Of a DNA stretch of 64,000 nt, positions 4,291 through 44,897 are shown in pieces (within the stretch, counting starts at the first letter, position 1; every line of letters starts with the position of its first letter). The notes beneath the pieces are model-generated. The model did no database searches and was not told the origin of the DNA. It saw only the letters and a list, made by a program, of their open reading frames with translations. Where the stretch lies: the NCBI GenBank assembly GCA_965208315.1, contig OZ242329.1, forward strand, positions 704,082-768,081. The letters are read 5' to 3'. This DNA is from Chloroflexota bacterium. GTDB taxonomy: Bacteria; Chloroflexota; UBA11872; VXOZ01. The position numbers and the translations under genes were made by a program.

Positions 4291-5076
4291 ATGGCACAGG
4301 CAACAGTTGAAGTAACGACCGAGGAACAAGCCTTCTACCAGGAGAACGGTTATCTCCTGATTAAGGGCTTGGTATCGGCTGAGGGCATAGCGAAACTCAA
4401 GGAGCGGTTGGAAGAGTACATGTACGACCGCTTGCCCGTGCCGGACGGTGTCAGGATCCAGGTTGAGCCGCGTGTGGAGCGTGGCGAAATGCCTTGGCCG
4501 GAGCGGCGCGGCGACGCGTACCGCAAGATTGACCGGCTCGTCATTCACGACGACCGCTTCCGCGCGTTGGGGACGATGCCCGGAGTGGTGGAACGCATGC
4601 AGGCGCTCATCGGCAGCAAGAACCTCAAGCTCTTTCGCGACTCCGCACTTATGAAACCGGCCCAGGTCGGTTCGGCCAAAGGCATGCACCAGGATTCGCC
4701 TTACTGGCCGATTGAGCCGATGGAGTTGAGCTCATGCTGGATGCCCTTTGAGCCTGCCACCCCGGAGAATGGTTGCATTACCGCCATTCCCGGCAGTCAC
4801 AAGCGTGGCCCAGTCCCTCATGAGCGCGTGCCGGACGACTATATCGTCAACGAAAGCAATTACGATCCCAACGACGTGATTGCTGTGCCGATGGAAGCGG
4901 GCGACGGTCTCTTCTTCCATAGCCTTCTGCTCCACGGCACCGCGCCCAATCTTACGGCGAACTCGCGGCGGGCAATCACGATGAGCTATATGGCAACCGA
5001 GTTTCACTACACCGGCGATTCCCCTAAGCCGGACTACCTGCTTATCTGCGGCGAGGACATCCCAGGCGGCGTCTAG
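4291..5076 (+). CDS. phytanoyl-CoA dioxygenase (PhyH) family Fe(II)/2OG oxygenase
   Basis: HQDSPYW (HxD) and distal LHGTAPN His. GGAGG RBS before the ATG. Confidence 0.65.
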   Translation: MAQATVEVTTEEQAFYQENGYLLIKGLVSAEGIAKLKERLEEYMYDRLPVPDGVRIQVEPRVERGEMPWPERRGDAYRKIDRLVIHDDRFRALGTMPGVVERMQALIGSKNLKLFRDSALMKPAQVGSAKGMHQDSPYWPIEPMELSSCWMPFEPATPENGCITAIPGSHKRGPVPHERVPDDYIVNESNYDPNDVIAVPMEAGDGLFFHSLLLHGTAPNLTANSRRAITMSYMATEFHYTGDSPKPDYLLICGEDIPGGV

Positions 5077-5156
5077 CGATCGCGAGGCGACAAATCCCAA
5101 CACATTTCTGGTGAGAGTCCTAATGGAGTTGCCGATGATTCCATAAGGGGTGCTTC

Positions 5157-6893
5157 TTGGCTGTAGCCCGCTTGAATGAGAACATCCGCCATGAGCCGGA
5201 CGAACCGTGCTCGCTGTTTGAGGCGGTTGCGGTTGGAGCGCAGGGCGTACTAATAGTTGTCGCGCCCGCAGTCGTTATCGTTGCTATCACGGCGGTGGCA
5301 TCCGGTCAAGACGAACGCTATCTGACGTGGGCGGTATTTGCGTCACTCATCATTGGCGGGGCAATCACGGCGCTGCAGGCGGCTGGCATCGGCTGGCTGG
5401 GTACTCGCCATCTCTTGATAACCGGCACTACGCCGAACTATGTAGCCGTCTCGGTGCTGGCATTGGACCAAGGCGGCCCGGCCGCACTCGCAAGTCTGAT
5501 CGTCCTTTCGTCGCTGTTCTACCTGGCCATTGCCGTTTGGCTGCCGCGCTTGCGGCGAATCGTCACGCCGGCCGTTTCCGGCACGGTGCTCATGCTTATC
5601 GCAACGATGATCCTGCCGGTGGCGTTAGATCGCATGCATGAAGTGCCCGAAGGCACCCTGCCGATCGCGGGTCCGTTCGTTGCGCTCGTTACACTCATAG
5701 CAACTGCCGTTCTGGCCTTACGCGCGCCCGTGTCTTGGCGGCTGTGGTCACCGCTCCTTGGCATTGGCGCGGGCTGTGTGGTAGCCGCCTTCTTTGGCAT
5801 GTACGATTTCGAGCGACTCGTTACCGCGCCTTGGTTCGGCTTACCCGATGGCGGGTTTCCCGGACTGGAGCTATCCCCGCCGACAGGCTTTTGGGCGTTG
5901 TTGCCGATGTTTTTGGTTGTAGCCCTCGTGCAGGCCATCAAGACCGTAGGCGACGCGATGGTCGTCCAGCAAGTCTCACAGCGCAAACAACGCGCCATCG
6001 ACTTCCGCTTGATTCAGGGGGCTCTCTACGCCAACGGAGTTGGCATACTGCTTTCCGGTCTTGCGGGCACGCCGCCCACGAGCGCATACTCGTCGTCCAC
6101 CGTCTCGCTCATCAATCTTACCGGCATCGCCGCGCGCAGAGTTGGCTACGCCATAGGCGTGATTTTTCTAATTCTGGCGCTATTCCCGAAAGTCACGGGC
6201 TTGCTGCTCACGATTCCTACCCCTATCATGGGTGCCTTCCTGTTGTTCGCCATCGGGATACTGTTCTTCGAAGGAATTCGGACAGTGGCGCGCTCCGGCC
6301 TTAGCTATCAAGATGCTATGATTGTCGGTCTGTCATTTTCCATCGGGGTTGGATTGCAGAACCAGAACATCTTCGCGGGGATACTTAGCTCGCCTTGGGA
6401 CGCCTTGCTCGGCAACGGCATTACCATCGGCGCTGCTGTGGCCATTGGCTTGACTATCCTTTTGGATTTGACCGGCCCACGCCGTCGCCGCTTGGAAACC
6501 CGGCTGGCTGCTTCCAGTATTCCTCACATCGACGAATTCTTGCAGGAGGTTGCCGCCAAGTTGAATTGGGGAAGCGCCGCTACTGAGAAACTGCGCTCTG
6601 CGGGCGAAGAGACACTTTCTAGCCTCCTGCAGCCGGGCAACGAATACCCAACGGACGCTACGCCGCGCTTGATCATCATGGCGCGCACTGATGCGAATGC
6701 GGTGGACCTGGAGTTTCTTGCCGTATTCGCAGAAGACAACCTGGAAGATCGTCTCGCCCACTTGGACGAGCAGTCCGAGACCAGCGACAACAGAGAAGTG
6801 TCATTTCGCCTGCTCCGGCATTATGCATCGTCGGTCCGCCACCAGAAGTATCACGGCTTGGACATTGTCACGGTGCGGGTTGAGGGCTCGTAG
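5157..6893 (+). CDS. nucleobase:cation symporter-2 (xanthine/uracil permease)-like transporter with C-terminal soluble extension
   Basis: Multiple TM helices. QAIKTVGDAMVV and SAYSSSTVSLINLTG-like NCS2 signature regions. Confidence 0.5.
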   Translation: MAVARLNENIRHEPDEPCSLFEAVAVGAQGVLIVVAPAVVIVAITAVASGQDERYLTWAVFASLIIGGAITALQAAGIGWLGTRHLLITGTTPNYVAVSVLALDQGGPAALASLIVLSSLFYLAIAVWLPRLRRIVTPAVSGTVLMLIATMILPVALDRMHEVPEGTLPIAGPFVALVTLIATAVLALRAPVSWRLWSPLLGIGAGCVVAAFFGMYDFERLVTAPWFGLPDGGFPGLELSPPTGFWALLPMFLVVALVQAIKTVGDAMVVQQVSQRKQRAIDFRLIQGALYANGVGILLSGLAGTPPTSAYSSSTVSLINLTGIAARRVGYAIGVIFLILALFPKVTGLLLTIPTPIMGAFLLFAIGILFFEGIRTVARSGLSYQDAMIVGLSFSIGVGLQNQNIFAGILSSPWDALLGNGITIGAAVAIGLTILLDLTGPRRRRLETRLAASSIPHIDEFLQEVAAKLNWGSAATEKLRSAGEETLSSLLQPGNEYPTDATPRLIIMARTDANAVDLEFLAVFAEDNLEDRLAHLDEQSETSDNREVSFRLLRHYASSVRHQKYHGLDIVTVRVEGS

Positions 6894-7106
6894 GGGGAAG
6901 AGTCCGGAAAGACTGTACCGCGCATGAATCGCGCGGAGGGAAGGCGAGCGACAATCAGAGATGGCGGTTTCTTGCAAGTCTACTGTGCTTGTTTGAATGC
7001 TACACCTCCCAAAGCGGATGCCCACGCTCAGGAAGTTGACATGAGTTAGCCGCCATCGTGCGAGTGAATGCTCTCTGCTCGTATTTCGTCCGGCCTGAAG
7101 CTCTGT

Positions 7107-8021
7107 TCAGCCTTGGGTGGTTGTGATCTGATCGACAAACTCCCGCACCACAGCCGCACAGTCCTCCGGTTGTTCCAGGGGGAGAAAGTGTGTGGCATCA
7201 GGCAAGAAGTCGTAGTCCACGCTAAGAATGTCGCTTAGATCTAACGTTGGAAGGTACGAGTAGGGCAGAGTGGGATCAGCCCCGATCACCTTTATGGGAC
7301 AGTGAAACTTCCCAAAATCCACAAGCACAGCGTAGGGGCTGGCGTAGTCCACAATCTGCGCTTCATACTCTGGCGGACACCGCAACTCAAAGCCGGATCC
7401 CCCTTCACTATTGCGCAACGTGGCCTGCGCGATGAGTCTAGTAGTGCCAGGAACGGTGTGCCGGAACGTCGGCGCAAAACTGAGCAGTTCCTCGAAGTCC
7501 TCCCTGGATTTGAAGTGAAAAGTGCGTCTTCTGGCATACCCTGCCGCGCGTGTCGCTGCCGCATCGAACTCCTCGTAGCTGGCTCCTGGCTTGCAGAGCG
7601 GGGGGTCAAAGAGGATGAGCGCCGCGTGCCGGCTGCCCTTCGTCGGCGAAACGAGCGTCGCCAGAGAAGAAACTGAGTGATAAACCCCAGTCAGGGGCTT
7701 CTCGCCAAAGTGGGACTCAATCGCATCCAGGATGAGGTCATGATCGTTGGCGAAGGTCGCAACAGTGTGCTCTCTTATCGAACTGACGGTGTTCCAGCCA
7801 TGGTTTCTCAAGTCATGCACGATGAGGTCGAAGTCGTCGGCGAGCAGAGACCAGAAGGGGTAGTACAGGTCGATGGCCAGACCGTTGCCATGGCACAGCA
7901 CAAGCCGCGGGCCGTCAGGATTGCCGTGGCGTCGCAGAGTGATAGTGGTTTCATCATCCACCGGAACGTCCAACGTGGCGAGGGGTTGGGGTACGTGCCA
8001 AATTGCATCCGAATCTGTCAT
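7107..8021 (-). CDS. alpha/beta-hydrolase fold protein (candidate product-release thioesterase/hydrolase of the PKS cluster)
   Basis: 304-aa ORF. VLCHGNG and TGVYHSVSS nucleophile-elbow-like region. Located just downstream of the PPTase and ACP genes. Confidence 0.4.
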   Translation of the reverse strand: MTDSDAIWHVPQPLATLDVPVDDETTITLRRHGNPDGPRLVLCHGNGLAIDLYYPFWSLLADDFDLIVHDLRNHGWNTVSSIREHTVATFANDHDLILDAIESHFGEKPLTGVYHSVSSLATLVSPTKGSRHAALILFDPPLCKPGASYEEFDAAATRAAGYARRRTFHFKSREDFEELLSFAPTFRHTVPGTTRLIAQATLRNSEGGSGFELRCPPEYEAQIVDYASPYAVLVDFGKFHCPIKVIGADPTLPYSYLPTLDLSDILSVDYDFLPDATHFLPLEQPEDCAAVVREFVDQITTTQG

Positions 8022-8028
8022 TGAGGTG

Positions 8029-8742
8029 CTAGTCTTTCCGCGCTGAGACTCCGCTCAATTCAATTGCTACAGCAGCCGCGAATTCCTGGTTGCCGAGGTC
8101 TTCGATTTGCCACGTGACCTCGGGCAGTCGTGGCAACTGTAGCATACCGCTCTCTCTGCCGCCTACCGTCGCTGCGGGAATCCTGATGCACGTTGCGTCC
8201 AGCACGAATCCTTCGCCCAACGCCTTCAATACCGCTTCTTTGAGGGTCCACAGCTTGAAAAAGAGGTGCGTTCGCGCTTGTCCTTGGGTCAAGGCAAGTG
8301 CCGTCTTCTCTTCCGGGCCAAGCACGGTGTCGATAAGCAAGCTGAGGTCACGCCGCGGGTCGCGTTCCTCGATGTCCACGCCCAAGCGTCCGGTTGGAGC
8401 GCACGCCACCAGCCCATGGTTCCCACTGTGGCTCACGTTGAAGCTAACGGAAGCGGGTTGGTCTTGCACCAGTGCGTACGGTTTTCCAAAGCGGGACGCG
8501 CGAAAGGCAAGCTGCTCGTTCTGGCAATGCAGCTCCTCACAGAGAATGGCGCGCAGAGCGGCGCGACACAGTGTAAAGCGACGGCGCGGCCCATCATACG
8601 CGAAGCGCTGCCGGCGAGCTTGCTCCTGGCCGTCGAGCCATCCCAAGGCTTCACTTTCCCATTCTTTATTCGGGTGATAAGTCAACGTGGATGATAGTCG
8701 TACTGCCAACGTCCCTGAAGTGGTTGCACCAACTGCTGTCAA
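8029..8742 (-). CDS. 4'-phosphopantetheinyl transferase, Sfp-type
   Basis: FNVSHSG, GVDIE and WTLKEAVLKALG motifs. Confidence 0.8.
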   Translation of the reverse strand: MTAVGATTSGTLAVRLSSTLTYHPNKEWESEALGWLDGQEQARRQRFAYDGPRRRFTLCRAALRAILCEELHCQNEQLAFRASRFGKPYALVQDQPASVSFNVSHSGNHGLVACAPTGRLGVDIEERDPRRDLSLLIDTVLGPEEKTALALTQGQARTHLFFKLWTLKEAVLKALGEGFVLDATCIRIPAATVGGRESGMLQLPRLPEVTWQIEDLGNQEFAAAVAIELSGVSARKD

Positions 8743-8802
8743 GTGTTGGCATAATGATACGCGATCAAAGTGGAAAGTATAGGCACTGGCGGATGTCGAA
8801 TT

Positions 8803-8834
8803 TCAAAAAAAGCGCCGCTCCTCATGGAGCGGCG
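8803..8834 (-). terminator. intrinsic terminator after stand-alone ACP gene
   Basis: GC hairpin GCGCCGCTCC-TCAT-GGAGCGGCG followed on the minus strand by a U7 tract. Confidence 0.55.
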
Positions 8835-8892
8835 ACTCTTCCGAACCAAGTGACGAAGACTCAGTCCCAAGTTTCATTGCTTAGGCGCCTGC

Positions 8893-9138
8893 CTAGGCAG
8901 CTTGCGAATCGAGGAACTCGATAAGCTCTTGTAGGTTGTTGATGGTTGGGCACTGCTCGCGAGAAAACTCCAGTTTGAACTCCTGAGCGACCACTTTGGT
9001 AAAGGCGACCACATCCATGGAAGATACGCCCGCCTCCGTCAGACTGACGCTCAAATCGAGCGATGAACTGAGCGGCTTTCCGTCTACTTCAAGATTGTCA
9101 GCGACGAGTTGCCTAATTCGATCTTCCGTTGAAGCCAT
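8893..9138 (-). CDS. stand-alone acyl carrier protein
   Basis: 81 aa, acidic, four-helix ACP-like. Phosphopantetheine serine context LTEAGVSSMDVV. AGGAGGA RBS upstream. Confidence 0.75.
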   Translation of the reverse strand: MASTEDRIRQLVADNLEVDGKPLSSSLDLSVSLTEAGVSSMDVVAFTKVVAQEFKLEFSREQCPTINNLQELIEFLDSQAA

Positions 9139-9310
9139 GCCTGTTTCCTCCTCTTTTGAAATGCTTCATTGCATAGAACTGTTGGCAGCATAGCAAGACA
9201 AGCCGTACTCGTCAAATCTACTGTACCGTCTCTTGTCTACGCTTTTAAACATTGGGCGTAATTCTGGGGCACAATCCTGAAAATCAATCCTGAGACGTAA
9301 TCGCCTTTCT

Positions 9311-12300
9311 TCAGGTCGATGCAATTCCCTTCGATGCCGCTATCCAGTGGCGGCGGCGCTGGAAGGGATAGCTCGGCAGCCCGATGCGCCGCCGAGACTC
9401 CCCGGTGAAGAGTCCTTTGAGTGAGATTGTGAGGCCGGTTTCGTATGCCTTTGCCACCGCCTCGAGAAACCCACGGTCAGAGTCGCAGGGCGGACTATCG
9501 GCTGAAGGACGTAAAAGGCTCTCGATTATCACCGGCATGGGGGCGTTAGACGCCGCTCCGGTCTGAACCGGCCACAAGTCTTGTATGGTAGGAGTGAGCC
9601 CTGGCTGCGGACCAATCTCGATAACCAGGTCTACGCCCAGTTCCGCCAACGTTTCGATGCAGCTTTGGAGATTCGCTGTCTCACCTGCTTGCTGCTCCCA
9701 GTAGGTCCCCTCGAGCAATGCTTCCGGTTCTGCCACGCGCCCCGTTACGCTGCTCACCAGCGGTACGGACGGTTGTGCAGCCTCAACGCCCGCAAAGGCC
9801 GCGTTCAGTTCACTTGAGTTCACTGTATCCGCCTGACCGGCAGTGGCGGCTGTCGACAAAGCGCCTCGCGCTGCGGCAAGGCGCAACCCATCCTCAAGAC
9901 CGAATACACCCGCTGCTTGCGCTGCCGCAAGCTCGCCGAGGTCGTGGCCCACGACCACGCTCGGTTGAATGCCTATGCTCGCCCACAGCGCCGTGAGCGC
10001 GCACTCGAGCGCGTATACGGCCGGCTGCGCCCACGTTGGGTCGTCCAGATCTGCTGCGTCACCGGCCCGACCAAACATCACGTCCAACAACGAGGTACTG
10101 CATTCCTTCAAGAGAAAAGCGTCACAGCGGTCGAGAACCGCGCGAACCACGGGATCTTGATCGTAGAGCGCTTTGCCCATGCCAACCCATTGGCTACCCT
10201 GATCGGTAAACGCAAAGGCTACTGTACTTACTGCCCGCGGTTCAGGTTCCTCGAGGTCTCCTTCCGTTTCGGCGAGATCTTCTAACTGTTCTCGCAATTC
10301 CATAAAATCTTGGAACGTTAATCCTGCACGATGCGGGAAATGGCTGCGTCCGACGCTGGCAGTCCAAGCCATATCCGAGAGCAGGGAAGCAGCAGCGGGG
10401 TCTGCCGGGTCAAGAACCTTGGCATAGCCATCGAGCCAGGTCAAATAGCGTTCTGCCAACTGGCGCAGAGCCTGACGGGTCTTGCCGGAGAGAGGCAACA
10501 GCTTTGTTGATCGTTCAGATTGCGCCTCCGCTACGGGAATTTCTGCGGCATCTTCCGGCAAGGGAGCAGGAACCTCACGTGATGCGCCGGCCGGCCAGCG
10601 GTCATTGGCATGTTCGGCGGAATCATCTTCCGGCGCGCTGTAGCCTTCTACCACCACGTGCGCGTTTGCGCCTGAAATTCCAAAGACATTGACACTTGCG
10701 CGCTGTGGTTGCTTGGCAGCGCGAGGCCAATCCATGGCCTCGGACGTCACCCGCACCGGCAACCGCTCCCAATCGATGTCGGGATTCGGCGTGTGGAAGT
10801 TGAGGTGCCTTGGAATCAGCCCCCGATTCATTGCCAGGACAGTCTTGATCAGGCTGGCGACGCCGCCAGCCGCCTCCAGGTGGCCGATGTTCGTCTTGAC
10901 CGAGCCGATCAACAGGGGGTTTTCAGCCTCGCGGCCTCGGCCATAGACGTTGGCTGCGGCATTGAGTTCGACCGCGTCGCCCAATGCTGTGCCGGGGCCG
11001 TGGGCTTCAAAGTAGTCCACCTCGGCCGGTGCGATACCTGCCTGCGCCAATGCTTCCTCCATAGCGCGCTCTTGGGCCGGCCCGTTGGGTAGCGTGAGAC
11101 CCAAACCGGCGCCGTTCTGGTTCACTGCCGAACCACGCACCACGCCCCAGATGCGGTCGCCGTCCGCTTGAGCATCGCTCAGGCGCTTCAATATCACCAT
11201 GCCGCAGCCCTCGCCCCGCACGTATCCATCCGCTGATGCGTCGAACGTTCTGCACTGTCCGCTCAGCGAAAGCATGCCTGCGTCCGCCAAGAATCGCAGT
11301 ACTGACTGTGAAAGCGCCGCATTTACGCCTCCAGCCAGAGCCATGTCTATCTCGCCACGCTGCAAACTCGTAGCCGCTTGGTGCACCGCCACAAGCGATG
11401 CGGCGCAGGCCAACTCCAGCGGTACGGCCGGCCCTTCCAAACCGAGCGCAAAGGCAATCCGCCCCACGGTTACGCCGCCTGAAGTACCCAGGAAGTCATC
11501 GTCACTACCGCTGGCAGTAATGACGCTCCGATACTCACTGCCGCCAACTCCTGCGTAGACACCGGTGCGGCTCCCCCGTAGACTATCGGGGTCAATCCCG
11601 GCATCCTCGAGGGCTTGCCAGCTCGTCTCCAACAGCAGCCGCTGCTGTGGGTCCATCATGCGTGCCTCGATGGGAGAAATGCGGAAGAACCGCGAATCAA
11701 AGAGGTCAATTCCTTCCAGGAATGCCCCGTGTCGCATCGCAGCGTCTTTGGCCTCTGGGTCGCCGGCGATTCCGTTCCAGGATCCGGCGTCCTGACGCCC
11801 CTCTGTTACCATGTTTCGTTCCGATTGCATCAGCCTCCAGAAGCCATCAAGATCCTCTGCCCCCGGTACCCGGCACGCCATGCCGACAATGGCTATCCCC
11901 TCCTCTACGCTCGCAGCCTGCGGGCGCTGCTCCTGGACGGGCTGCTCGGGCAGTGTTGCCGGTACGTCAGCACCCGTGAATCCGTCGGCGCTGCCAAGTT
12001 CACCTGCCAGGTGGCGGGCAAGACCCGAGATACTCGGATAGTCGAAGACCACTGTATTGGATGCCACATACTCACCGGCAAAGCCGCGGTTGATGCGGTT
12101 GCGCAACTCTACCGCCATCAGCGAATCCATGCCCAAGTCGGAGAACTCGACGGTTGGCGCGGGAGTTGTGTTCAATCTCAGCACTGCTTGCACTTCCTGT
12201 TGCAGGAAGGCCGCCAGCACGTCCTCGCGCTCCGCCGGTGGCGCGTTCCGTAGCCGGGACAACAGGTCTTCCGACGTTGCTGCTTCATCGGCTTGCTCGT

Positions 12301-15300
12301 CAGTGGCCGAGGCGAGCAGGTCTTCCAAGAAAAGCGGACGATCCTCGACAGCCTCTGCAAACACCGACCAATCCATCGACATCACCACGGAGGTTGTGGC
12401 GTCCTGTCGCACCAGCAACTCAAGCGCCTTGATGCCTTGTTGCGGCGTAAACCAGCGACCGCCGAGGGCCGCCCGCCGCTGCTCGATCCGCTCGCGTTGT
12501 TCCGCGGCCTCGCCGATCTCCGACCACGCGCCCCAGGCAATGGCTTGTCCCGGCAGACCCAACGCGCGACGGTAGCCGGCAAGCTGGTCCAGAAAGGCAT
12601 TGGCCGCGGCATGGTTCGCCTGGCCGGGATTGCCCATGACACCGACCCGGCTCGAAAAGAGGATGAACAGATCCAGATCACAGTCCAGGGTTGCGCGGTG
12701 CAGGTGCCAAGCCCCCAGAATCTTCGGCCACAGCACGCGCTCGAAGCTCTCCCAGGTCTGGTTGGTAAGCGCGGCGTCCGACAGCACGCCCACACTGTGA
12801 ATGACACCGCCCAGTGGCGGCAAGCTGGCATCGATGCGCGCCAACATGGCGTCGATGGCTGCAGTATCCGTCACGTCTGCCAGTTCGACTTCGATCCTGA
12901 CCCCGCGATCACGCAGGGCAGCGATGGCTGCCTCCGCCTCGGCATCGGGATTACGGCGGCCGTTCAGCACGATTGTGCCCGCGCCGCAAGCCGCGAGCCA
13001 TTCCGCCACGGCGCAGCCGATGCCGCCCAGACCGCCGGTCACCAGGTAGGTGCGGTCCTGACGCAACTGACCCCGCAAGAGCGGAGGCGGCGTGAGCACG
13101 ATCTTGCCAATGTGCCGGGCTGAGCGCATGAATCCCAAAGCGGCTCCCGCCTCGGCCAGCGGCCAGCGGCTATGGATGAGCGGCGTGAGGTCACCGGATA
13201 CAATGCCATCCATGACCTCGCGCAGTACTTCCCCTACCCACGCCGGGTCGGTTTTCTTCAGAACATCCAGTTCCAGGATGTCGTACTTCACGTCCGGTCG
13301 GACGGCCGCCATCTCCTCGTGGCTGAGGATGTCCCGCCTGGCTAATTCGACAAAGCGTCCGCCCTGCGCCAGGCAGGCTAAACTGGCTTCGATAAAGCCC
13401 TCGCTTGTGAGGCTGTTCAGCACTACATGCACACCCTCGCCGCCGGTGGCTGCGAGGATTTCATCGCCAAACGCGGTCGTGCGGCTGTCGAAAATGTGGT
13501 TGATGCCGACTGACCGGAGATATGCCTGCTTTGGCGCGCTGGCCGTGGCGAATACTTCCACGCCGGCAGCTTGCGCCAACTGGATCGCTGCCAGTCCCAC
13601 GCCACCCGCGCCCGCATGGATCAGTACTCTGTCTCCCGGCTCCAGCCCGGAGTAATGGTATGACAGTGCAGCCGACACGAACGCGCTGGGCACGGTAGCC
13701 AACGCCGAGACTGACATGCCTTCAGGGGCCGGCGCCACCAACTCCTCATGCGTGACCATTTCCGGCGCAAATGCGCCGAAACCTAGTCCAACCACGCTAT
13801 CGCCGACGGACACATTCGAGACATCTGAGCCAACGTCGAGAATGCGACCGCACATCTCCCGGCCCAGATTGCCTTCCTCGATAAAGCCAAGCGAGCGGAA
13901 GACGTCCCAGAAATTCAGCCCGGTGGCCTCGACTGCGACGCGCACCTCATTCGGCTCCAAGGAGTGCGCGGGCAGCATCTTGATCTCCGGCTCGTCGAAC
14001 ACACCTCCTTTGTTAGGGACTAATACCCATTCCGATTCCTCTGGCAGGGAAAGGCGCTCAGACGCGGCAGCGGGCCGCAGCAGGCGTGCCGCATGACGGC
14101 TTCCCAACCGGTAGGCGATGTGGTTCTCGCGGTCGGGATACATGAGCTCATTCGCGAGGTCTGACAGCAGTTCAGGCTCGGCGGGATCCAAATCGATCAT
14201 CCGGGGCTGCAGATGCGGGGCTTCCAAGGATACAACCTTGCCGAGACCCCACAGAGGGGCGCCGGCCAGTTCGCCGGCGTTCTCGCGTTCCAACACTTGT
14301 GCCCCGCGCGTGAAAAACCACACACCGTTTGCGGGAATCACGTCGGATTCGGCCACACCTTGTACCAGCGCCAGCGCACTTGCTCCTGCGCGTTTCACGT
14401 CCGCCGCAATCTCTTGAGTGGTTGCTTCCGCTCCGTGACCGTCCAAGCCCGCGAGGTGCACTACGCCGCTGAATGGAACATCCTGCGGTAGGCTCTCGAT
14501 CAGCGTGCGCCACGCTTCACGAGACGCCATGTCAAATGCAGTTTTGCGAATCGCGTTGCCAACCACTGCCGTCACACCGCTTGCAGGCGCTGCGTCGCTT
14601 GCCAGGACGACTGTTTGATTTCGCTCCGCCAATTGCGCCGCGAGTTCTTCCGCCACGCTACCATTGTCTGCGGTCAGCACCCACACGCCGGGTGGTTCAT
14701 CAATCTTTGCCGGACCGGAAGCTATGATCACACCCTTATCCGGCGTCTTGGATGAGTCGGCCTCGTCCGGCCCTAAGACTTCCGCTTCCGCGAAACCTGC
14801 GTCACTCAGAGCTTGGCGCCACACCGCAGGGCTTGCCAAGGCGTGATGGGGGCGGTAGTCGTCGGCAAACCGCCACCAGCCGTCCAACTGTCCAAACGTC
14901 AGGTCCATCCAGCCCAGGCCGCTGAGATTCTCCAGCGCAATCAACTGTCCCGATGGCGCTAGCAGCGCCCGGCAATGCGCCAGCGTCTCTTCGAGATAGC
15001 GCGTGGCGTGCAGCACGTTGGAGGCAATCAATAGGTCATAGCCGTGGGCAGCGTAGCCCTGCTCGATGGGGTCTTTTTCAATGTCCAACGGACGGTATTC
15101 GATGCACCCGCCGCCATCGCCAAATCTCGCTTCCGCTTCTGCAAAGAAACCCGCTGAGATATCCGTGTACATGTAATCAAACTGGCCAGCAGGTAGCTCC
15201 GGCAGCACGGAGGCGGTTGCCGATCCCGTGCCCGCGCCGACCTCGATGACCCGCAGCCGCCGTCCTGTGGGCAGAGCGGCTACCAATGCCTGAACCGCGT

Positions 15301-18300
15301 CCGCCAGCATCCGGTTTGCCGCGCGGGCCACCGGCGCTTTCAGGTAGAGGTCGGCCGCCGTCGGTTCCCCGCTGCTGAAGAGCAGCGTCAAAGGGTCTTC
15401 CCGGCCGCGGAGCACCTCAGCCAGGGCGAGGCCGGACCGCCGGAAGAGGCCGATTTCAATCTGGCCCTGAGGGTATTGGCCTGTCATCCAATCTGTGAAT
15501 GCTTCAATGTCGCTTGGCATCTCTTCCGGCAGCGGATCATCCGGGCCTACGACGACGACAAAGCCGTCGCTCGTTTCCTCAAGCACTTCTGACTTTGCGA
15601 GCATTTCAAATAGCCGGCGGAAAAGGCGCGTGTGCTCCGGGAGGACGTCAAGCTGCTGCCGCACCTCCTCCGGGTCCACGACAGCGCCCTTGACGCGCTG
15701 CCAGCCCAATTCCTCTAACGTCGCGAGCGCGCGGGACCGAGACCAGCGCTCCAAGTCCGCCAGCAGGGCGTCTCTGCCTTGCGGATCGACTTCCGCGTCC
15801 GTCAGGTATCCGGTGAACAATTGCGTATGGGCCGCAATCTCGGACGGATTTGGGAAGAAGCCCGCAGGCAATACTCCAGACTCAAGCGCATGTTCGCGCC
15901 AGACGACCTCGTACAGCAGGTCGTCGACACCCTCTTCCCCTGCAACCGCCGCCAGCAAGGCCGCCTGTGTGGCGCGCTTCACCGTGTATCCGTTAATCTC
16001 ACCGACTAATGCGCCATTTGGATCGTAGATACGTACTTCGCCACTCAAGACTTCGGGCGGATCACCCCCTTCTGATTCGGCGTCCTGAGATGCTTCACTC
16101 ATGACCACGTGGCAGATCACGCGCTCCGGCAGTCCTCCGGCAAGCCACAGACGCTCCCAGCCGAAGGGCAAATAGGTTGCCTCGCCCGGGGCGCCGGTCA
16201 TGTTGCGTGCAACGCCTACGACCTGAAAGCAGCCATCCAGCACAAGCGGGTGCACGTCTAGGTCATTGCGATCCAAACCCTCGGGCAGGGAGATTTCTGC
16301 CAAAGCCTCGCCAGGACCGGACCAGACCTTGCCAAGCGTACGGAAGAACGGACCCAGGTTGATACCGGTTGCAGCCTTCGCGCCGTATAGGCAGATTTAT
16401 CAGCGGGTGAGAGACTTGCTCGCAGGCTATCCAGGTCAAGGTGTGCTGCGGTCTCCGGCGGTGCAGCGCCCGACGAGACTTGGGCCTCCACATGCAGGGT
16501 CCATTCGCCCTCAGTTCCCTTGCTGTAAATCTGGACGTGGCGCGACGCCGTTTCCTCTGATGCGTCGAGCAAAACCTGCACATGCCGGACCGCATCCTCG
16601 ACCCCGTCACTCGAGTCATTCTCAGCAAATACCAGTGGGCTGTGCAGTTGCATGTCTTCAATCGCTATCGGGCCGTTTCCATCCAGGAACGCTAACGCGG
16701 CTGCCATTGCGCCGTAGAGCGCCCCCGGTACCACGAGTCGTCCGAAGACGCGGTGGTCTTGCAGCCAGGCCGGGTCTGATGGGTATACTTCTGTCTCGAA
16801 GATGATTTCGCCGCGGGCTGATTCATGGCGAAGGCCGAGCAAGGGGTGATCGGTGGTTGTTCGCCGTCGTTTTGCCGGTTGCAGCCAGTGGCGTTCGCGC
16901 TGGAACGGGTAGCCCGGCAAGGAGATGCGACGCCGGGTCTCTCCGGCGAATAAGCCCGCGAAAGAGACTTCGAGTCCCGCCTCGTAGGCCGCGGCTACCG
17001 CATCCACAAAGCTATTTTCAGATTCAGGTGATGATCCATCTCGAGGCGGACGCCGCAGGCTAGAGAGCACAACCGGCGTCCCGACAGCATCTTGGTTCGA
17101 TGCCGCATCAGGCCAGGCCAGCGTCGTCATGGGGCCCAGCACGGCGTGCGGGCCTATCTCGATCACGAGGTCTACGTTGCATTCAGCCAAGACTCGGACT
17201 CCGCTGGCAAACGCCACTGGCTCGCGCGCGTGCCGCCGCCAGTAAGCGCCGTCCAGCGCCATGCCGGAATCGACGGCACTGCCAGTCAGGTTGCTGATCA
17301 CAGTCAAGGTGGGGGAACCAATTGCCACATCATCCAGAGCAGCTTCCAACTCATCCAGGGCCGGTTCCACCAAGGGACTGTGGAAAGCGCGGGTCGTGTT
17401 GAGCCGCCGTACCCGTACCCCCTCCGATTCAAAGCGCTTCACGAGAGATTCAATGTTTGCAACCGGCCCGCTGACCACTGTGTGGGCGCCGTTGTCCGCC
17501 GCAAGGCTGAGACCGATGCCGTCGGACACCGCGTTGAGATCGTCAACCGCTGCCGCCACGCGCGACGCCGGGGCAAAGACGGCAGCCATCGTACCGGGTT
17601 CTGTTTCGGACAGGAGGGTGCCGCGCCGCGCGGCAAACCGCATCCCGTCTTCCAGGCTGAAGACGCCCGTGGCCTGTGCGCGGCCAGTTCCCCGACGCTA
17701 TGTCCCAGCACCACGCTCGGTTGGATGCCCACGCTTGCCCAGAGCGCCGTCAAAGCGCACTCCAGCGCGTACAAGGCCGGCTGCTCCCACGCGGTATCGC
17801 CCAAGTCGTCGCTCGCGCCGGGCCGCCCGAACATAACGTCCAGGAGAGAGGCACCTCTTTCTTCCTGGAATACCGCTTCACAACGGTCCAGCACCGCTCT
17901 CGCTACCGGCTCCGTCTCGTAGAGGGCCTTGCCCATGCCAACCCACTGGCTCCCTTGCCCCGTGTAGACGAACGCCACTTGAGATGGCGGTGAGGACTTC
18001 TCTGTAGCGGTGGCCTCAGTCAGCTCGCTGAGCCGCTCTTTCAATGAGGCGATGTCGTGAAAGACGGCGCTCGCACGGTGGTCGAAGTGGCCCCGTCCGA
18101 TACCCGCTGTCCATGACATGTCCGCAAGCAAAGACTCCAAGTCTGCGACTTCTTCGGAAGTCTCTGCCGCCCGTTCGTCGAGCCACGCGAGATACCGTTG
18201 CGCAAGTTCCCGGAGCGCGCCCTCGGACTTGGCCGACAGTGGCAGGAACCGGGCTTGGCGTTGTGCAAACTCTTCCTGTTGCGGGGCTGAAGCGGTCACT

Positions 18301-19754
18301 GGCTCAGGTAGCGAGACCGCCACAGCCTGTGCCGCGCCCGCCGTCTGAAGCTCCTGACTGGGTTCACCGTTTGTGCCGCGATACTCCCCCACCACAATGT
18401 GGGCATTCGTCCCGGAAATCCCGAAAGAATTCACCCCCGCGAGGCGCGGCCGTTGGCGGTCTTGCGGCCAGTCCATCATGTCTGATGTTATCTGCAGCGG
18501 CAGACGCTCCCAGTCCGTACTGGGATTGGGGTCACGGAAGTGCAGGTGTTTGGGAATCACCCCTGTATTCACCACCAGCGCCGCTTTGATGACCCCTGCG
18601 ATGCCGGCCGCGGATTCCAAGTGGCCGACGTTTGTTTTCACAGAGCCTACGAGCAACGGATGGTTGGGGTCGCGCTCGCGGCCGTACACATTGGCCACGG
18701 CATCTATTTCGATGGGATCGCCAACGGCGGTTCCTGTGCCGTGCGCCTCAAGATAATCGACCTGCGAGGGGAGTACGCCTGCGTCAGCCAAGGCGGTTTC
18801 CATCACTTGTTCCAACGCGGGCGTGTGTGGAACGGTCAGGCCGACGCTGGCGCCGCCGTGATTTACCGCTGAGCTGCGAATCACCGCCCAGATGCGATCC
18901 CCGTCAGCCTCCGCCTCGCTGAGCCGCTTCAAGACAACGACCCCGCAGCCTTCGCCTCGCACGTAGCCGTCCGCAGAGGCATCGAAGGTCTTGCACTGGC
19001 CTTCCGGGGACAGCATCATCGACTCGGCGCGCAATTCGTAAATGCGACCGTTTAAAATGGCCTGCACGCCGCCCGCGATGGCGAGGTCCGCTTTGCCGTG
19101 CTGCAGGTCTGCCACCGCGTCATTTACGGCCACCATGGCTGAGGCGCACGCAGCGTCCACAGCCTTTGCCGGTCCCATGAGACCCAGAACAAAGGAGACT
19201 CGACCGCTGGTGCCATTGAGGTTGGTGCCGCTCAGGGCGTAGAGAGAGCCCGCAGCCTCGCCAGGCTTGGTGGAGTCTACGACCAGCATGCGGTATTCAT
19301 CGTTGCTGATGCCGGTGTACACCCCGGTGCGGCTGCCTTTCAGTCGGCTGGGATCGATGCCCGCGTCCTCGAGGGCGAGCCAGCTTGCCTCAAGCATCAT
19401 GCGTTGCTGTGGGTCTAGCATCTCGGCCTCAACCGGCGAAATGCGGAAGAACTCCGCGTCAAACTTGTCGATGTCATCGACAAAGGCACCGAAGCGGCAT
19501 GCCTGGTTTTGCACGTCAAGATCGCGGAAGATTTCCCCCATGCGACCCTCACCGGAAGCGAGGTCGCCTTCGGTGACCGCATTCTTGCCATCTAGCAGGA
19601 ACTGCCAGAAGGAGTCCAAGTCACCGGCGCCGGGAAAGCGGCACGCCATACCGACAATGGCAATTGGTTCGTCAGGTTGTGAAGTATTCTTATTCACAGG
19701 ACGCGGCCGGCTAGTCGCGTGTGTAGGGCTACTTTGAATATCAGCTGACCCCAT
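9311..19754 (-). CDS. type I polyketide synthase, KS-AT-DH-cMT-ER-KR-ACP-KS-AT(degenerate); reading frame interrupted by two apparent 1-nt indels (possible pseudogene or sequencing errors)
   Basis: Three overlapping minus-strand ORFs form one gene (17439-19760, 16258-17643, 9311-16303). Motifs: KS DAACAS/EAHGTGT/NVGHLE; AT GHSVGE then AFHSPL; DH HRVFGRLVVPG and LDGCFQ; MT VIEVGAGTG; ER HAGAGGVG; KR TGGLGGIG; ACP LGMDSL; KS2 ELACAAS/EAHGPGT; AT2 GHDLGE. Likely start ATG 19754 after GAAAGG. Confidence 0.85.
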
Positions 19755-19943
19755 TGTCAACCTTTCATGGCGTATGCACTGAGCGCTGCGACAGCTCTTT
19801 TGCTTGCTATCGAGCGGATGTGTGATTCGGCTATATTAGTGCAGGGCACGTCGCACATTTGGCGACAACAGCTTTAGAGGTATTTTACACCGAATTGCTG
19901 CCTTGATTCGAGGGTGCTTTTATACCAAAGCAGCGTGAGGCGA

Positions 19944-19990
19944 CATAAAGACCCCCAAGCCGGAAGCATCCGCCATCCGGCTTGGGGGCC
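19944..19990 (-). terminator. intrinsic terminator of SBP gene
   Basis: 12-bp GC stem CCCCCAAGCCGG...CCGGCTTGGGGG followed by a U-rich tract on the minus strand. Confidence 0.5.
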
Positions 19991-20022
19991 TAATCCTCGA
20001 CCGAGCAGGTCAGAGGTTGCTT

Positions 20023-21420
20023 CTATTCGTTATAGAATTCCTGAATAGATGGCTCCTGGAGCACAGCGTCCCAGCGCGCGGCGACGTTATCGAGCGCGTC
20101 GCGGGCGTCGAGTTCGCCGGCGCCGGCTTTCGCCAACTCTTCCAGGATGATGGGGCGCATCTTGTCCCAACCGGGAATGGGTTGGCGGCCGAGGCCGACG
20201 TTTTGGAGATTGCTGAGCAAGCCGGACAGGAAAGCATTCTCCTGCACATACGGGGCCTTGTTTGCCACGGAGACGCGCGGCGGCAAGTAGAACGTCAACT
20301 CGTCATAGGCGATGAGGACGTCGTCCTCATGTACCGTGAGCAAGAGGTCCCACGTCACGTCCGGGTTCTTGGTAGCGGCGCCCATGCCCAGCCAGTCGTT
20401 GAACGAGAGGCTGACAGCCCGCTGGTCGCCCATGGGCTCAGGCGCAACGAGAATTTGGTCAACGTCTTCCGGCGCATCAGTTGAAACACGGCGGCCGATG
20501 GCGGCGTTACCCCAGATCATGGAGACATAGCCGCCGGCAAAGCCCGCACCGTAGCCACTGAATTCCGGACCGACATACGATGAGCCATGAGGATTGAAAC
20601 CGAGCTTGCGACGCAACTGGAATTCCAGCCCCGCGATAGCTTCCGGACCGTTCACAAAGCCCTGTGCCTTGCCATTGGTGACCCATTGCACGCCATTCGA
20701 TTCGACAATGCCGTTCAATTCGGCTTCTTCGGGATCACGGCCGAGATTGCCCGGACTGAAACCGTAGCGCTCGATCTCCTTGCCCAGTACCTTCCACTTT
20801 GTCATCGTGGTGGCGAAGTCGGCTTGGTCGTCCATAGTCCACGCTTCAGGCGGCGTCAATCCCGCCTCCGCCATGTGGTCGTCGCGAAGCCAATACGAGC
20901 GATTGGCCGCCATCATGGGCATGCCCTGCAACTGCCCCTTCACGCGGACGGTATCCAGTGTGCTGGGCAGGAAGTCCGGCTCCATGCCCCAGGTGGCAAA
21001 GTACGGATTGAGCGGGATGGAAAGCCCCGCCATATAAATGGACGGCGCAATCGCCTGCCCCATCTTGAAGAGATCGGGCATCTGTCCGGCGGCCAAGCCA
21101 ACCGAGAGCTCCACAAACGTGTGCGCCTGGCCCCCCGTGCGGGGCGTGAAGACGACCTGACCGTTCGGGTACTTCGCCTGAAAGCGCTCGTTCAGAATGC
21201 CTTCCGCCCACTCTTGCCAGCGCCCGCCATCCTGCACGCTCAGTGTGACTTCCTCCGTCTTTGGTCCTGCTTCCGCGGCCGGCTCCGCAGCCTGCGGCTG
21301 ATCCCCATCCATCTCTGTAGACGACATTTGGGCCTGACCGCAGGCCGCCAGGAGCCCAATCGCACCTACTGTCACGCCCGATCCCAGCAGACCACGGCGC
21401 GTAATGTGCAAGCTTCGCAT
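20023..21420 (-). CDS. ABC transporter extracellular solute-binding lipoprotein (sugar-type), Tat/lipobox signal
   Basis: RRGLLGSG twin-arginine motif plus LLAACG lipobox. Family 1 SBP-like length. AAGGAGAG RBS. Confidence 0.7.
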   Translation of the reverse strand: MRSLHITRRGLLGSGVTVGAIGLLAACGQAQMSSTEMDGDQPQAAEPAAEAGPKTEEVTLSVQDGGRWQEWAEGILNERFQAKYPNGQVVFTPRTGGQAHTFVELSVGLAAGQMPDLFKMGQAIAPSIYMAGLSIPLNPYFATWGMEPDFLPSTLDTVRVKGQLQGMPMMAANRSYWLRDDHMAEAGLTPPEAWTMDDQADFATTMTKWKVLGKEIERYGFSPGNLGRDPEEAELNGIVESNGVQWVTNGKAQGFVNGPEAIAGLEFQLRRKLGFNPHGSSYVGPEFSGYGAGFAGGYVSMIWGNAAIGRRVSTDAPEDVDQILVAPEPMGDQRAVSLSFNDWLGMGAATKNPDVTWDLLLTVHEDDVLIAYDELTFYLPPRVSVANKAPYVQENAFLSGLLSNLQNVGLGRQPIPGWDKMRPIILEELAKAGAGELDARDALDNVAARWDAVLQEPSIQEFYNE

Positions 21421-31793: not shown

Positions 31794-32019
31794 CTGCGTT
31801 TGGCAGGGGAATAAGTAGCTATTGACTTTTCACTTTCTCCTTCGCGCTTGAAGGTGAACGTCCACGGACGAGGGTTGTTCCCGGTTCTCTGTTGCTCCTT
31901 GCAGATAGTGTCTGCCTCGATGCAAATTGCTGGCAGTTGGCCGTCATATACGACACATATCCTCCGCTTCTTGGGCGTTTCCACTACTGGCGTCATTAGT
32001 CTCTCCTTGGAGGTGTCGT

Positions 32020-32877
32020 GTGAACATCCTACAGATCGCCAAGCGTTTCCCCACTCAAGAATCTTGCATCGACCATTTGGAGCAAGTCAAGTGGGGCGAT
32101 AAGCCTCACTGTCCGTACTGTGGCAGCTTCGACGTGGGCCGCAAGGTTGAGAAGGGCTACCTGAAGCGCTGGAACTGCTACGCCTGCACATCAACGTTCC
32201 GCGTGATGACGGGCACTATCTTTCAGGGCACGAAGATACCTCTGCAAAAGTGGTTCGCTGCCATTGCCATCTTGCTGAACGCTAAGAAGAGTGTCTCCAG
32301 CTATCAACTGGCGCGAGACCTAGACCTGAACCAAAAGACCGCTTGGTACGTGGCGATGCGCATTCGCAAAGCCATGACCGATGATGGCGACATGCTGCAC
32401 GGGATCGTTGAAGCGGACGAGACCTACATCGGCGGCAAGCCACGTGGCAAGAAGGTTCCCGGCCAGCGCCGCAAGAGCAAGAAAACCCCCGTGATTGGTG
32501 CGATTGAGCGCGGCGGCAAGGTCAAGGCAGCGCCCGCGCCTCGTGTTACGACGAAGCTCATCAACTACTTCCTGCGGAGCAACGTGGATCCGCGCTCGGT
32601 GCTCGTGACGGACTACTGGCCTGGCTATAACGAAGTCCGTGACTGGATGCAGCACGTGCGCATCAATCACTCGAAAGAGTACGTGCGGGGTGATGTCTAC
32701 ACGAATACCATCGAGGGCTTCTGGGCGCTGGTGAAGCGGGCAATCTCAGGCCAGCACCACCACTACACGGTCGAGCACGCGGGAATGTACATTGACGAAG
32801 CGGCGTACAAGTACAACACGCGGAAGGCAGAGATGCCTTGGGATGACTTCATGCTGAGAGCTTGCGGAGTTTCTTGA
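32020..32877 (+). CDS. IS1595-family (ISXO2-like) DDE transposase with N-terminal zinc ribbon
   Basis: CPYCGS...CYAC zinc finger. Helix-turn-helix region and DDE-region similarity. GTG start 32020 after GGAGG. Confidence 0.8.
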   Translation: MNILQIAKRFPTQESCIDHLEQVKWGDKPHCPYCGSFDVGRKVEKGYLKRWNCYACTSTFRVMTGTIFQGTKIPLQKWFAAIAILLNAKKSVSSYQLARDLDLNQKTAWYVAMRIRKAMTDDGDMLHGIVEADETYIGGKPRGKKVPGQRRKSKKTPVIGAIERGGKVKAAPAPRVTTKLINYFLRSNVDPRSVLVTDYWPGYNEVRDWMQHVRINHSKEYVRGDVYTNTIEGFWALVKRAISGQHHHYTVEHAGMYIDEAAYKYNTRKAEMPWDDFMLRACGVS

Positions 32878-41708: not shown

Positions 41709-42890
41709 GTGGTTCAGCGGAGTGGCAGTATGCCTAGTAACAGAGCAGACGTAGTCGTCATTGGCGGTGGCATTTCGGGCCTCAGCACCGCCTATCATCT
41801 GGCCAGGGTGGGCAAAGACGTCGTCGTCGTCGAGAAAGGGATCGTCGGGGCCGAGGCGTCCGGTCGCAACGGTGGGATGATCAGCGAACGCACTGACGAG
41901 CCGGACTTGGTGCCGTTGGCGGTGGAATCTGTGCGATTGTGGCCGACGCTGGACGATGAATTGGGCTATCCCACCGAGTTCGTGCAGAAGGGTAGGCTCC
42001 AAGTTGCCGTATCCGAAGCGGAAATGGGCCGCTATCTCACCGAGTGTGAGGTTGGGGAGCGTTTCGGCGTGCATGTGGATGTGCTGGATCCAGGAGAAAT
42101 ACGGGACTTGGTGCCTTGCGTCACCGATAGAAACCTCGGCGGGATCTTTTTCCCCAAGGGCGCTCACGCCAACCCGCAGCGGTCGGTTCAGGCATTCGCC
42201 TGGGCGTTTCAAGACAAAGGCGGAAAACTCTACCAACACACCGCCGTCAAGGGTTTCAAGCAAGCAGGTGGAAGGGTCACGGCGGTTGAGACGACCACCG
42301 GCGACATCGAGGCCGACACGGTGGTGTGCGCTGCCGGGCCTCAAACGGCGCTAATGCTCGAGCTGGTGGGTGTGCGCGTGCCCCTAGCGACGGCGAGGGC
42401 AGAGATTATTGCCACTGCGCCCTTGGAGCCACTCTTTGAGATGGCCCTCGTGGGCAACGGTCTCTACGGGCGCCAAGCCAAGAAGGGCAACCTGCTCTAC
42501 GGCGGAGGACCCCACGAATGGATCGATGTGGACTTGACCGGAGATCCCGGCAAACCCAACACGCCCCTCATACGGAATATCGCCAGGCGGCTGGCAGACC
42601 TGTTTCCCGGGGTGGCGGACGTGCCGGCAATCCGGAGTTGGGCCGGGGTGATCGAACAAGCGCCGGATTCCCTGCCTATCATCGACATCCTGGACCGGCC
42701 GAGCAACTTTGTATTTGTCTCCGCATCGGCCCATGGCTTCGCAATCGCCGCCGCCACGGGCAAGGTCGTGAGCGAACTGGTCTTACACGGCGAGTCCAGC
42801 GTTGAGATAAGTGGACTGCGAATGGACAGGTTTAGCGACGTTGCGCCGAACTGGCGTGAAGAGCTTGGTTGGGTTCCGATTCCGAGATGA
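41709..42890 (+). CDS. FAD-dependent oxidoreductase (HcnC/OoxB/DAO-like)
   Basis: VVVIGGGISGLSTAY Rossmann motif. DAO-family length. Confidence 0.65.
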   Translation: MVQRSGSMPSNRADVVVIGGGISGLSTAYHLARVGKDVVVVEKGIVGAEASGRNGGMISERTDEPDLVPLAVESVRLWPTLDDELGYPTEFVQKGRLQVAVSEAEMGRYLTECEVGERFGVHVDVLDPGEIRDLVPCVTDRNLGGIFFPKGAHANPQRSVQAFAWAFQDKGGKLYQHTAVKGFKQAGGRVTAVETTTGDIEADTVVCAAGPQTALMLELVGVRVPLATARAEIIATAPLEPLFEMALVGNGLYGRQAKKGNLLYGGGPHEWIDVDLTGDPGKPNTPLIRNIARRLADLFPGVADVPAIRSWAGVIEQAPDSLPIIDILDRPSNFVFVSASAHGFAIAAATGKVVSELVLHGESSVEISGLRMDRFSDVAPNWREELGWVPIPR

Positions 42891-44107: not shown

Positions 44108-44117
44108 GGACTACGAT

Positions 44118-44897
44118 TTGAATCCTGCGACAAAGAACGCAGTCATCAGTATATTGCGAGATTTCGCCACTAGCCAGTTACCGAAACTGACCAAATGGAC
44201 GCTGTCAGATATCGGACAAGCCTACCCTTTCCATCGACTCTTCTTTCCTGATAGAGAGATACTTGCTGCAAGAGTCGAAAGAAGCGTCGTCACATCAATG
44301 GGTACAACGCTCTACCCAAGTCTGGCCGAAGCGATATGTAAAGGACGATTTGATTGTGTACACGTTGAGCACCCCATAGAAGGCATGGTCAATGATGCGG
44401 CGATCAACATGATTGAGCAGATAGTCACCGAACTCCGCACATCTCCTAAGAAGCGTGAGTACCCTCGAAATCCAGACCACGACGCTGAATTGAGTGACAT
44501 ATTAAACTCAAGGGGCGGTGGTCAGGCATCTCGTTCGGTTACCGCCGATCTATACGTAGGAGACTTTGATTGTGGCCCTCTGTTCATTGAGCTAAAGAGC
44601 CCGCTTCCCAATCTCGATGTTGCGGCGGAATCTAAAAGGAAACTCCTTTACTACCTAACTATTATGAATAGGCAAGGGAAGATCAATCCACAAGCTTTCT
44701 TGGGCCTAACGTACAATCCTTTCATTACTCGAGAGCAATACGGGCACTCCTACACTAAGCAAATCATGGACATGCGTAAGCAGGTCCTGATTGGTAGCGA
44801 ACTATGGGACTACTTAGGTGGTCCCGGAACCTATTCCGAGTTGTTGGCACTAATTGAGCAAGTCCGGCAGGAATTACCGGGTCTTGCAAACCTATAG
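44118..44897 (+). CDS. putative type II restriction endonuclease, PD-(D/E)xK fold
   Basis: ADLYVGD...FIELK D/ExK core. Low GC, same orientation, 10 bp after the MTase. TTG start. Confidence 0.5.
   Translation: MNPATKNAVISILRDFATSQLPKLTKWTLSDIGQAYPFHRLFFPDREILAARVERSVVTSMGTTLYPSLAEAICKGRFDCVHVEHPIEGMVNDAAINMIEQIVTELRTSPKKREYPRNPDHDAELSDILNSRGGGQASRSVTADLYVGDFDCGPLFIELKSPLPNLDVAAESKRKLLYYLTIMNRQGKINPQAFLGLTYNPFITREQYGHSYTKQIMDMRKQVLIGSELWDYLGGPGTYSELLALIEQVRQELPGLANL

Follow-up and report, generated by a model that had tools for sequence, protein, structure and literature searches.

A conserved histidine at the ketoreductase catalytic-tyrosine position and a truncated terminal acyltransferase in a putative supA-type polyketide synthase from a Chloroflexota bacterium

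A 64,000-nt stretch of a Chloroflexota genome (contig OZ242329.1, positions 704,082 to 768,081; the whole stretch is called the window) carries on its minus strand, from 19760 to 9311, a type I polyketide synthase (PKS) gene broken into three open reading frames (ORFs). Its ketoreductase (KR) domain has His where the catalytic Tyr is expected, and its terminal acyltransferase (AT) domain, AT2°, has lost its nucleophile. A preliminary description made from the letters of the window had regarded both substitutions as inactivating and had proposed, together with the frameshifts, either decay or a ketosynthase (KS)-AT(0) design fed in trans. All facts given in that description held, and its interpretation is supported in part. 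The reading favoured here, fairly probable when taken as a whole, is that the gene is of the supA type ('sponge symbiont ubiquitous PKS') and belongs to a Chloroflexota symbiont, that the KR His and the crippled AT2° are ancestral, selected features of an enzyme working by the steps proposed below, and that the copy in the window is a recent pseudogene.

The addition of one base at each of two sites restored a single 3483-aa protein with the order KS-AT-dehydratase (DH)-C-methyltransferase (cMT)-enoylreductase (ER)-KR-acyl carrier protein (ACP)-KS-AT°. In the Pfam scan, one of the three ORFs contained KS and half of AT, the next the remaining AT and half of DH, and the third the remaining DH, the methyltransferase, ER, KR, ACP, KS and a partial AT. 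This third piece is a 2330-aa minus-strand ORF (16303..9311) that includes the KR stretch SSRVGVMGNPGQANHAAANAF. A protein search returned over 100 full-length orthologues of about 3350-3480 aa, with 66-87% identity and approximately 100% query coverage, from metagenome-assembled genomes (MAGs) named Chloroflexi, Dehalococcoidia, Gemmatimonadetes, Nitrospira and Bacteroidetes. For family-wide counts, the restored protein was aligned by MAFFT with 120 orthologues from several phyla (121 sequences), and the order KS-AT-DH-MT-ER-KR-ACP-KS-AT was common to all 120.

The sup genes have been described as a small, ubiquitous, monomodular PKS of sponge symbionts that dominates sponge metagenomes, and mid-chain methyl-branched fatty acids have been hypothesized in the literature as the product (PMC3908369, PMC4245539, PMC9864124). 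PMC3908369 and PMC4245539 credit the sup cluster (supA-supE) to Fieseler et al. 2007 and Hochmuth et al. 2010.

The ketoreductase histidine

The catalytic subdomain of KR (12503..13051, minus strand) has TGGLGGIG, Lys, Ser and Asn intact. In a phmmer comparison with the PDB, GNPGQANHAAANAF aligned gap-free to GSPGQGAYAAANSW of mycocerosic acid synthase (MAS) and to GSGGQPGYAAANAY of AmphB. The His, encoded by CAT (reverse complement of 12611..12613; residue 1231 of the 2330-aa ORF), therefore occupies the catalytic-Tyr position, as had been claimed, and Lys (WPKILG), Ser (LFSS) and Asn were in place in the same alignment. Measured against the Lys-Ser-Tyr-Asn pattern of reductase-competent short-chain dehydrogenases/reductases, the domain has GGxGxxG, Lys, Ser and Asn, and Tyr is absent.

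His was present in 121/121 sequences. Over 73 loci its codon was CAC in 48 and CAT in 25, a mixture that indicates synonymous turnover with retention of the residue. KR was also the most conserved of all domains, with 86% mean identity to the window and 66% of columns at least 95% conserved; TGGLGGIG, Lys2347, Ser2370/2371 and Asn2388 were invariant. The catalytic motifs of both KS domains, DH, ER, cMT and ACP were invariant or nearly so. Because the His is invariant in all orthologues and lies in the most conserved domain, it is judged to be an ancestral, selected feature of the whole Sup family and not a product of decay. With a dead KR, DH and ER would have nothing to act on; the conserved DH, ER and cMT motifs therefore favour a working enzyme. 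Judged from this conservation and from the HMWP1 analogy that follows, the Sup KR probably works, and the term 'inactivating' is probably wrong for the Tyr-to-His change.

The analogy comes from HMWP1 of the yersiniabactin synthetase. When KS1 DNA was compared with E. coli genomes in a distant search, no match was obtained, and the E. coli irp1 locus (L083:22174-31665) was located through published irp2 PCR primers. The first irp1 copy retrieved was frameshifted; the intact copy is WP_001737295.1, with KS at 27-440, AT at 553-825, cMT at 1060-1271 and KR at 1560-1735. In this intact HMWP1 (KS-AT-cMT-KR-ACP) the KR motif is GAPGQSAHALACGY, with His in the same column of the hidden Markov model (HMM) as the SupA His, and the KR stretch, LGAPGQSAHALACGYLD, retains Lys and Ser. 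A protein search with the HMWP1 KR yielded short orthologue fragments only, and His was kept in these. The PKS part of HMWP1 has been described as KS, AT, MT, KR (NAD(P)H-dependent reduction) and ACP (PMC9547227). HMWP1 thus resembles SupA in its His, its Lys and Ser, and the position of cMT upstream of KR; it differs in that its KR is distant (69 bits against the Sup KR profile) with Cys for Asn, in the lack of DH and ER, and in being part of a hybrid of nonribosomal peptide synthetase and PKS. Yersiniabactin bears the resulting secondary alcohol next to a gem-dimethyl carbon.

A ybt-like cluster of Morganella morganii (L084:6605-10690) is arranged KS-AT-KR, with no cMT between AT and KR, and its AT-to-KR gap is 380 aa versus 735 aa in HMWP1. 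The Morganella KR, 48% identical to that of HMWP1, reads GSTGQTGYALASGYLD and has Tyr. Among solved structures, the best match of the Sup KR was the MAS-like PKS (E 5e-49). MAS and animal fatty acid synthase are, like SupA, single-module, fully reducing megasynthases; unlike SupA, they have the canonical Tyr and no second KS-AT°.

His-type KRs were also found outside the Sup family. A search of the KR domain against a 50%-identity representative library gave 150 proteins with 492 KR domains, a sample biased to relatives of the His-KR. Where a complete module had a detected cMT, the Tyr column held His in 13 cases, Tyr in one and Glu in one; in those without a detected cMT, it held His in five, Tyr in 419 and ten other residues. 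His-KRs adjoined Tyr-KRs within one multimodular polypeptide, for example in P0121, P0125-P0127, P0175, P0205 and P0228. A KR-independent sample was obtained by searching plasmids with the Sup cMT, and 16 loci were read. Where cMT lay upstream of KR, His was found in 5/10 modules (Dolichospermum, Gloeocapsa, Nostoc C052, B. gladioli and Ralstonia) and Tyr in the other five. Tyr was also present in every KR from other modules or from modules in which KR precedes cMT (trans-AT-style). The figure of 13 of 15 cMT modules was rejected as an overstated measure of the His-cMT link, since those proteins had been chosen by likeness to the His-KR and the cMT-selected plasmids gave 5/10. As read from these two samples, the link is a strong enrichment and no rule. 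Among residues compared for covariation with His across independent His-KR lineages, only clade-specific differences were found. In a Leptolyngbya plasmid PKS (L086:6219-6809), the KR after cMT keeps Tyr and has a two-residue insertion in the preceding loop (GAVGQQLGSYSAANAF).

It is tentatively proposed that His-for-Tyr KRs form a competent subtype recurring where cMT precedes KR (Sup, HMWP1, cyanobacterial, Burkholderia and Ralstonia modules), and that the exchange may tune KR to await or prefer the alpha-methylated beta-keto intermediate. In the literature searched for His-type KR, catalytic-Tyr-to-His KR and HMWP1 KR residues, no paper discussing these was found, nor any description of a catalytically competent His-KR subtype. 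Rule-based annotation would call the Sup KR inactive and mispredict the chemistry of a PKS family that dominates sponge metagenomes, and the same would apply to HMWP1-like modules. A tolerated, probably functional His variant tied to C-methylation is directly testable by enzymologists, and awareness of it would sharpen product prediction for cMT-containing modules. Taken alone, the locus is unremarkable, a copy of a known cluster that was recently broken; what merits a specialist's notice is that the His-type KR is conserved and is enriched in C-methylating modules, among them that of HMWP1.

The terminal acyltransferase and the proposed working of the synthase

AT2° (9563..10222, minus strand) consists of the large subdomain only and has neither nucleophile, catalytic His nor small subdomain. 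At the Ser position of GHSxG it reads GHDLGE, and the Asp reported there is encoded by GAC (reverse complement of 9941..9943; residue 2121). In an alignment of AT1, AT2 and E. coli FabD, AT2 was without the block ...GTMAAV... VSGP ...RAFHSPL..., and where AT1 has a small-subdomain block of approximately 86 residues, AT2 has a 14-residue filler (STAATAGQADTVNS; 9815..9856, minus strand). Nucleophile and IEIGP are 106 aa apart in AT2 and 178 aa apart in AT1, so that 72 residues are missing, close to the earlier estimate of roughly 75. Only positions 2-126 of the 319 in the Pfam AT profile were matched by AT2.

Across the 121 sequences, the nucleophile column of AT2 held Gly in 93, Asp in 20, Ser in four, Asn in three and Glu in one, while the preceding column held His in 55, Gln in 39 and other residues in the remainder; GQGSQ and Arg were degenerate. 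Comparison of orthologues, which had been suggested as a check, upheld the KR His as general and not the Asp. The small subdomain was deleted in all 121 (AT2 66-109 aa versus AT1 177-179 aa), including the four orthologues with a Ser nucleophile. The catalytic set of AT1 (Q602, S688, R713 and H794) was invariant. Conservation of AT2 was the lowest of the domains and linker-like, at 57% identity with 17% of columns conserved, and YPF..W of the post-AT linker (9314..9562, minus strand, ending in the conserved YPFQRRRHW) was among the invariant columns. AT2 is truncated in every sequence and, from these substitutions, predicted to be catalytically dead family-wide. Its defects are judged to be ancestral, a design feature of the Sup family and not decay.

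An AlphaFold model of AT2, for which 26 diverse AT2 regions were used, had a confident core that folds as an AT (pLDDT 78, pTM 0.80). The model matched the AT domains of KS-AT didomains, best CurL (4mz0; E 2e-19, TMq 0.72), and AT2° resembles such domains of CurL and DEBS in superposing at a TMq of about 0.7. It also resembles the stubs that follow KS in trans-AT PKSs, which keep the linker and post-AT linker without catalysis; it differs from them in retaining the whole large subdomain and in having a competent AT on the same protein. AT2° is most likely a structural scaffold for KS2. It would then illustrate clearly how an AT can be retained in nature purely as scaffold, which is useful for KS-AT boundary design.

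The KS-AT(0) design envisaged in the preliminary description is supported by the dead, truncated AT2 of the 121 sequences and with the free-standing ACP gene that follows supA in 69/81 loci. Feeding in trans needs qualification: neither the sup-cluster genes nor the window ORFs scanned included a discrete AT gene, and AT1, of intact type and on the same polypeptide, would be the likeliest supplier for both ACP1 and the free ACP. Outside the Sup family, the related protein P0123 contains a full module whose AT shows the same small-subdomain gap, and P0124, P0127 and P0128 have AT-less modules (KS-cMT-KR, KS-DH-cMT-KR and KS-DH-ER-KR). Sharing or absence of ATs is therefore frequent in the nearest relatives.

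The following working is proposed. An Sfp-type phosphopantetheinyl transferase (PPTase) would prime ACP1 and the free ACP, as expected from the domain families. AT1, a malonyl-type xAFH AT and the sole competent one, would load both carrier proteins. KS1 would condense, after which cMT would methylate the beta-keto intermediate and the His-type KR would reduce it with NADPH, His replacing Tyr as the proton donor. DH and ER would then complete a 2-methyl-branched saturated unit. KS2 (10793..11902, minus strand) appears condensation-competent because its Cys-His-His triad (Cys2786, His2921 and His2961) is invariant, and it would either pass the chain on or elongate it onto the free ACP. AT2° would serve as a structural partner only, holding the KS2 linker and the post-AT linker, and the hydrolase and permease encoded nearby would act downstream.

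The frameshifts and alternative readings

Both frameshifts mentioned in the preliminary description were confirmed in the sequence as single-base deletions. Frameshift 1 (17678..17679, minus strand; GCG GCA to GCGCA) lies nine residues past the AT1 Ser, just after GHSVGELAA, and was also found in locus L001. Frameshift 2 (16386..16387, minus strand; TAT TAC to TATAC) lies in DH. Both were also present in a second assembly (ENA ERZ23495468, scaffold_2464), which differed from the window by 13 single-nucleotide polymorphisms (SNPs) and one 2-nt indel over 26.3 kb. Both were absent from L002-L004 and L006, of which L003, L004 and L006 were intact. The nearest species-level relative, Chloroflexota MAG Plut_88905 (89% aa identity), had a single frame with an independent Trp-to-stop change in AT1. 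Changes of the window protein at near-invariant columns showed no excess (six versus a median of four), and only the two frameshifts are lineage-specific damage. Since these two 1-nt deletions cut AT1 and DH, the supA of the window is most likely a very recent pseudogene, as far as the sequence can indicate.

A stop or frameshift interrupted supA in about 14/81 species-level loci (L002, L012, L024, L026, L030, L032, L036, L046, L048, L068, L072, L077, L080 and the window), and frameshifts have been reported in 15.4% of supA amplicons (PMC4245539). The C-terminal half of AT1 (aa 694-886), which makes up 5.5% of the protein, held six of the 15 disruptions, with a binomial P of about 1e-4 that is uncorrected for post-hoc choice. 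Across loci, the disruptions reflect either recurrent inactivation or assembly error. In L012 (4197-5843, a Dehalococcoidia MAG), a 1.6-kb insertion, a frame change and a stop break supA near aa 1223-1235, and the insertion may be a mobile element.

If the frameshifts were sequencing or assembly errors, supA would be intact in the living cell. Such an explanation would account for the position of both single-base deletions in dinucleotide runs and for the absence of decay in the remainder of the gene, and supA frameshifts have earlier been suspected as artefacts (PMC4245539). It is nevertheless unlikely, as a second assembly 13 SNPs apart has the same two deletions and about 14 other lineages are disrupted, including L002 with a clean Trp-to-stop substitution. 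Far less probable, and hardly tenable, is the proposal of decay, under which His and Asp would be inactivating changes accumulated with the frameshifts in a dying gene. The two frameshifts themselves and the independent premature stop of the nearest relative would fit it; against it stand the universal His with its two codons in the most conserved domain, AT2 defects common to all orthologues, intact genes in other phyla included, and the lack of excess change at near-invariant columns.

The remaining alternatives accept the conserved features and assign them other roles. A KR that is redox-dead throughout the family, kept for structure or another role with reduction absent or carried out by another enzyme, is quite unlikely. 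The missing canonical Tyr, which rule-based active-site checks would flag, and the lack of biochemical proof of a His-KR in the literature searched speak for it, and yet the NADPH motif, Lys, Ser and Asn do not vary, and DH and ER, which depend on the KR product, have kept their catalytic motifs. C-type reductase-incompetent KRs are described as lacking the active-site Asn (PMC7327777); of the residues whose loss marks C-type KRs (Asn and, in the C1 type, also Ser and Tyr), the Sup KR retains Asn2388 and Ser2370/2371 without exception. HMWP1, moreover, shares the His in a module whose KR is described as NAD(P)H-dependent (PMC9547227). With regard to AT2°, a docking platform for a trans-acting AT such as FabD, with AT1 not loading the free ACP, is a doubtful option that deserves somewhat more weight. 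The remnant resembles AT-like stubs after KS in trans-AT systems, and some non-Sup relatives have modules that lack an AT, while one has an AT that carries this deletion too. It is disfavoured by the absence of a discrete AT gene among the sup-cluster genes and window ORFs scanned and by a fully conserved AT1 on the same polypeptide.

Several points count against the favoured combination of a supA-type gene, a working His-type KR, a scaffolding AT2° and recent inactivation. Architecture, context, host taxa and secondary literature are the grounds for the supA-type assignment, and members of the orthologue cluster bear automatic names, none being 'SupA'. The literature searched contained no enzyme assay of a His-type KR, and KR activity is argued from conservation and the description of HMWP1, whose own KR has Cys at the Asn position. 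The His-cMT link is not absolute, given that about half of the cMT-selected modules keep Tyr and that five His-KRs sit in modules without a detected cMT. That AT1 would load the free ACP is a presumption, and the two assemblies of the window may share the same reads.

Remaining domains, neighbouring genes and distribution

The remaining domains of the supA-type gene all lie on the minus strand. KS1 (18411..19670) has an intact Cys-His-His. AT1 (17092..17975), here cut by frameshift 1, has family-invariant GQGSQ, GHSVGE, Arg and RAFHS, and DH (16013..16809), cut by frameshift 2, has an intact HxxxGxxxxP. The cMT (14693..15355) carries the SAM motif EVGAGTGSAT and ER (13073..13975) the motif HAGAGGVG, both conserved family-wide. 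ACP1 (11993..12205) contains LGMDSL with an invariant Ser. The KS-AT linker domain of the second KS was placed at 10268..10789 by the Pfam scan.

Downstream of the PKS, on the same strand, follow genes for a supB-like free-standing ACP (8893..9138; 81 aa, GVSSMD), a supC-like Sfp-type PPTase (8029..8742) and a supD-like alpha/beta hydrolase (7107..8021); a supE-like permease of the Xan_ur_permease family (5157..6893) lies on the opposite, plus strand. SupE has been described as a permease (PMC3908369), and the literature searched for SupB-E yielded nothing relevant. Among 81 loci, the cluster genes kept downstream of supA were the ACP in 69, the PPTase in 63, the hydrolase in 67 and the permease in 53. 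Like the window, the Sup cluster comprises an essentially monomodular type I PKS with cMT and a full reductive loop, then ACP, PPTase, hydrolase and permease genes; like the family of the window, whose members are putative symbionts, it occurs in many phyla with frequent frameshifted copies. In the window copy, two 1-nt deletions interrupt the PKS gene.

A scan of species-representative genomes gave 196 relatives, among them Dadabacteria/Thermodesulfobacteriota, Latescibacterota, Acidimicrobiia, Arenicellales, Spongiisociaceae and Poriferisocius. A sponge or coral origin of relatives is suggested by MAG names in the record titles (Spongiisociaceae, Poriferisocius and others).

When L004, L006 and L008 were compared with window positions 4291-21420, the flanking genes (solute-binding protein, PhyH, hydrolase and permease) were 76-95% identical, and SupA, SupB and SupC just 57-72% identical. 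In these three loci, SupA had 60-63% identity to the SupA of the window, less than the 66-73% seen with other phyla. From this difference in identity between flanks and SupA/B/C, it looks as if a supABC cassette was replaced inside a conserved locus.

Adjoining the sup cluster, two tandem 470-aa paralogues resembling neutral/alkaline ceramidases occupy positions 10-1422 and 1458-2870, and a PhyH-family dioxygenase gene is located at 4291-5076. A link of the ceramidase-like paralogues and the dioxygenase with lipid metabolism is possible. Elsewhere in the window, an IS1595-family transposase (31927-32877) and a type II restriction-modification pair (42869-44897), consisting of a DNA methylase and a TdeIII-like endonuclease, were observed.

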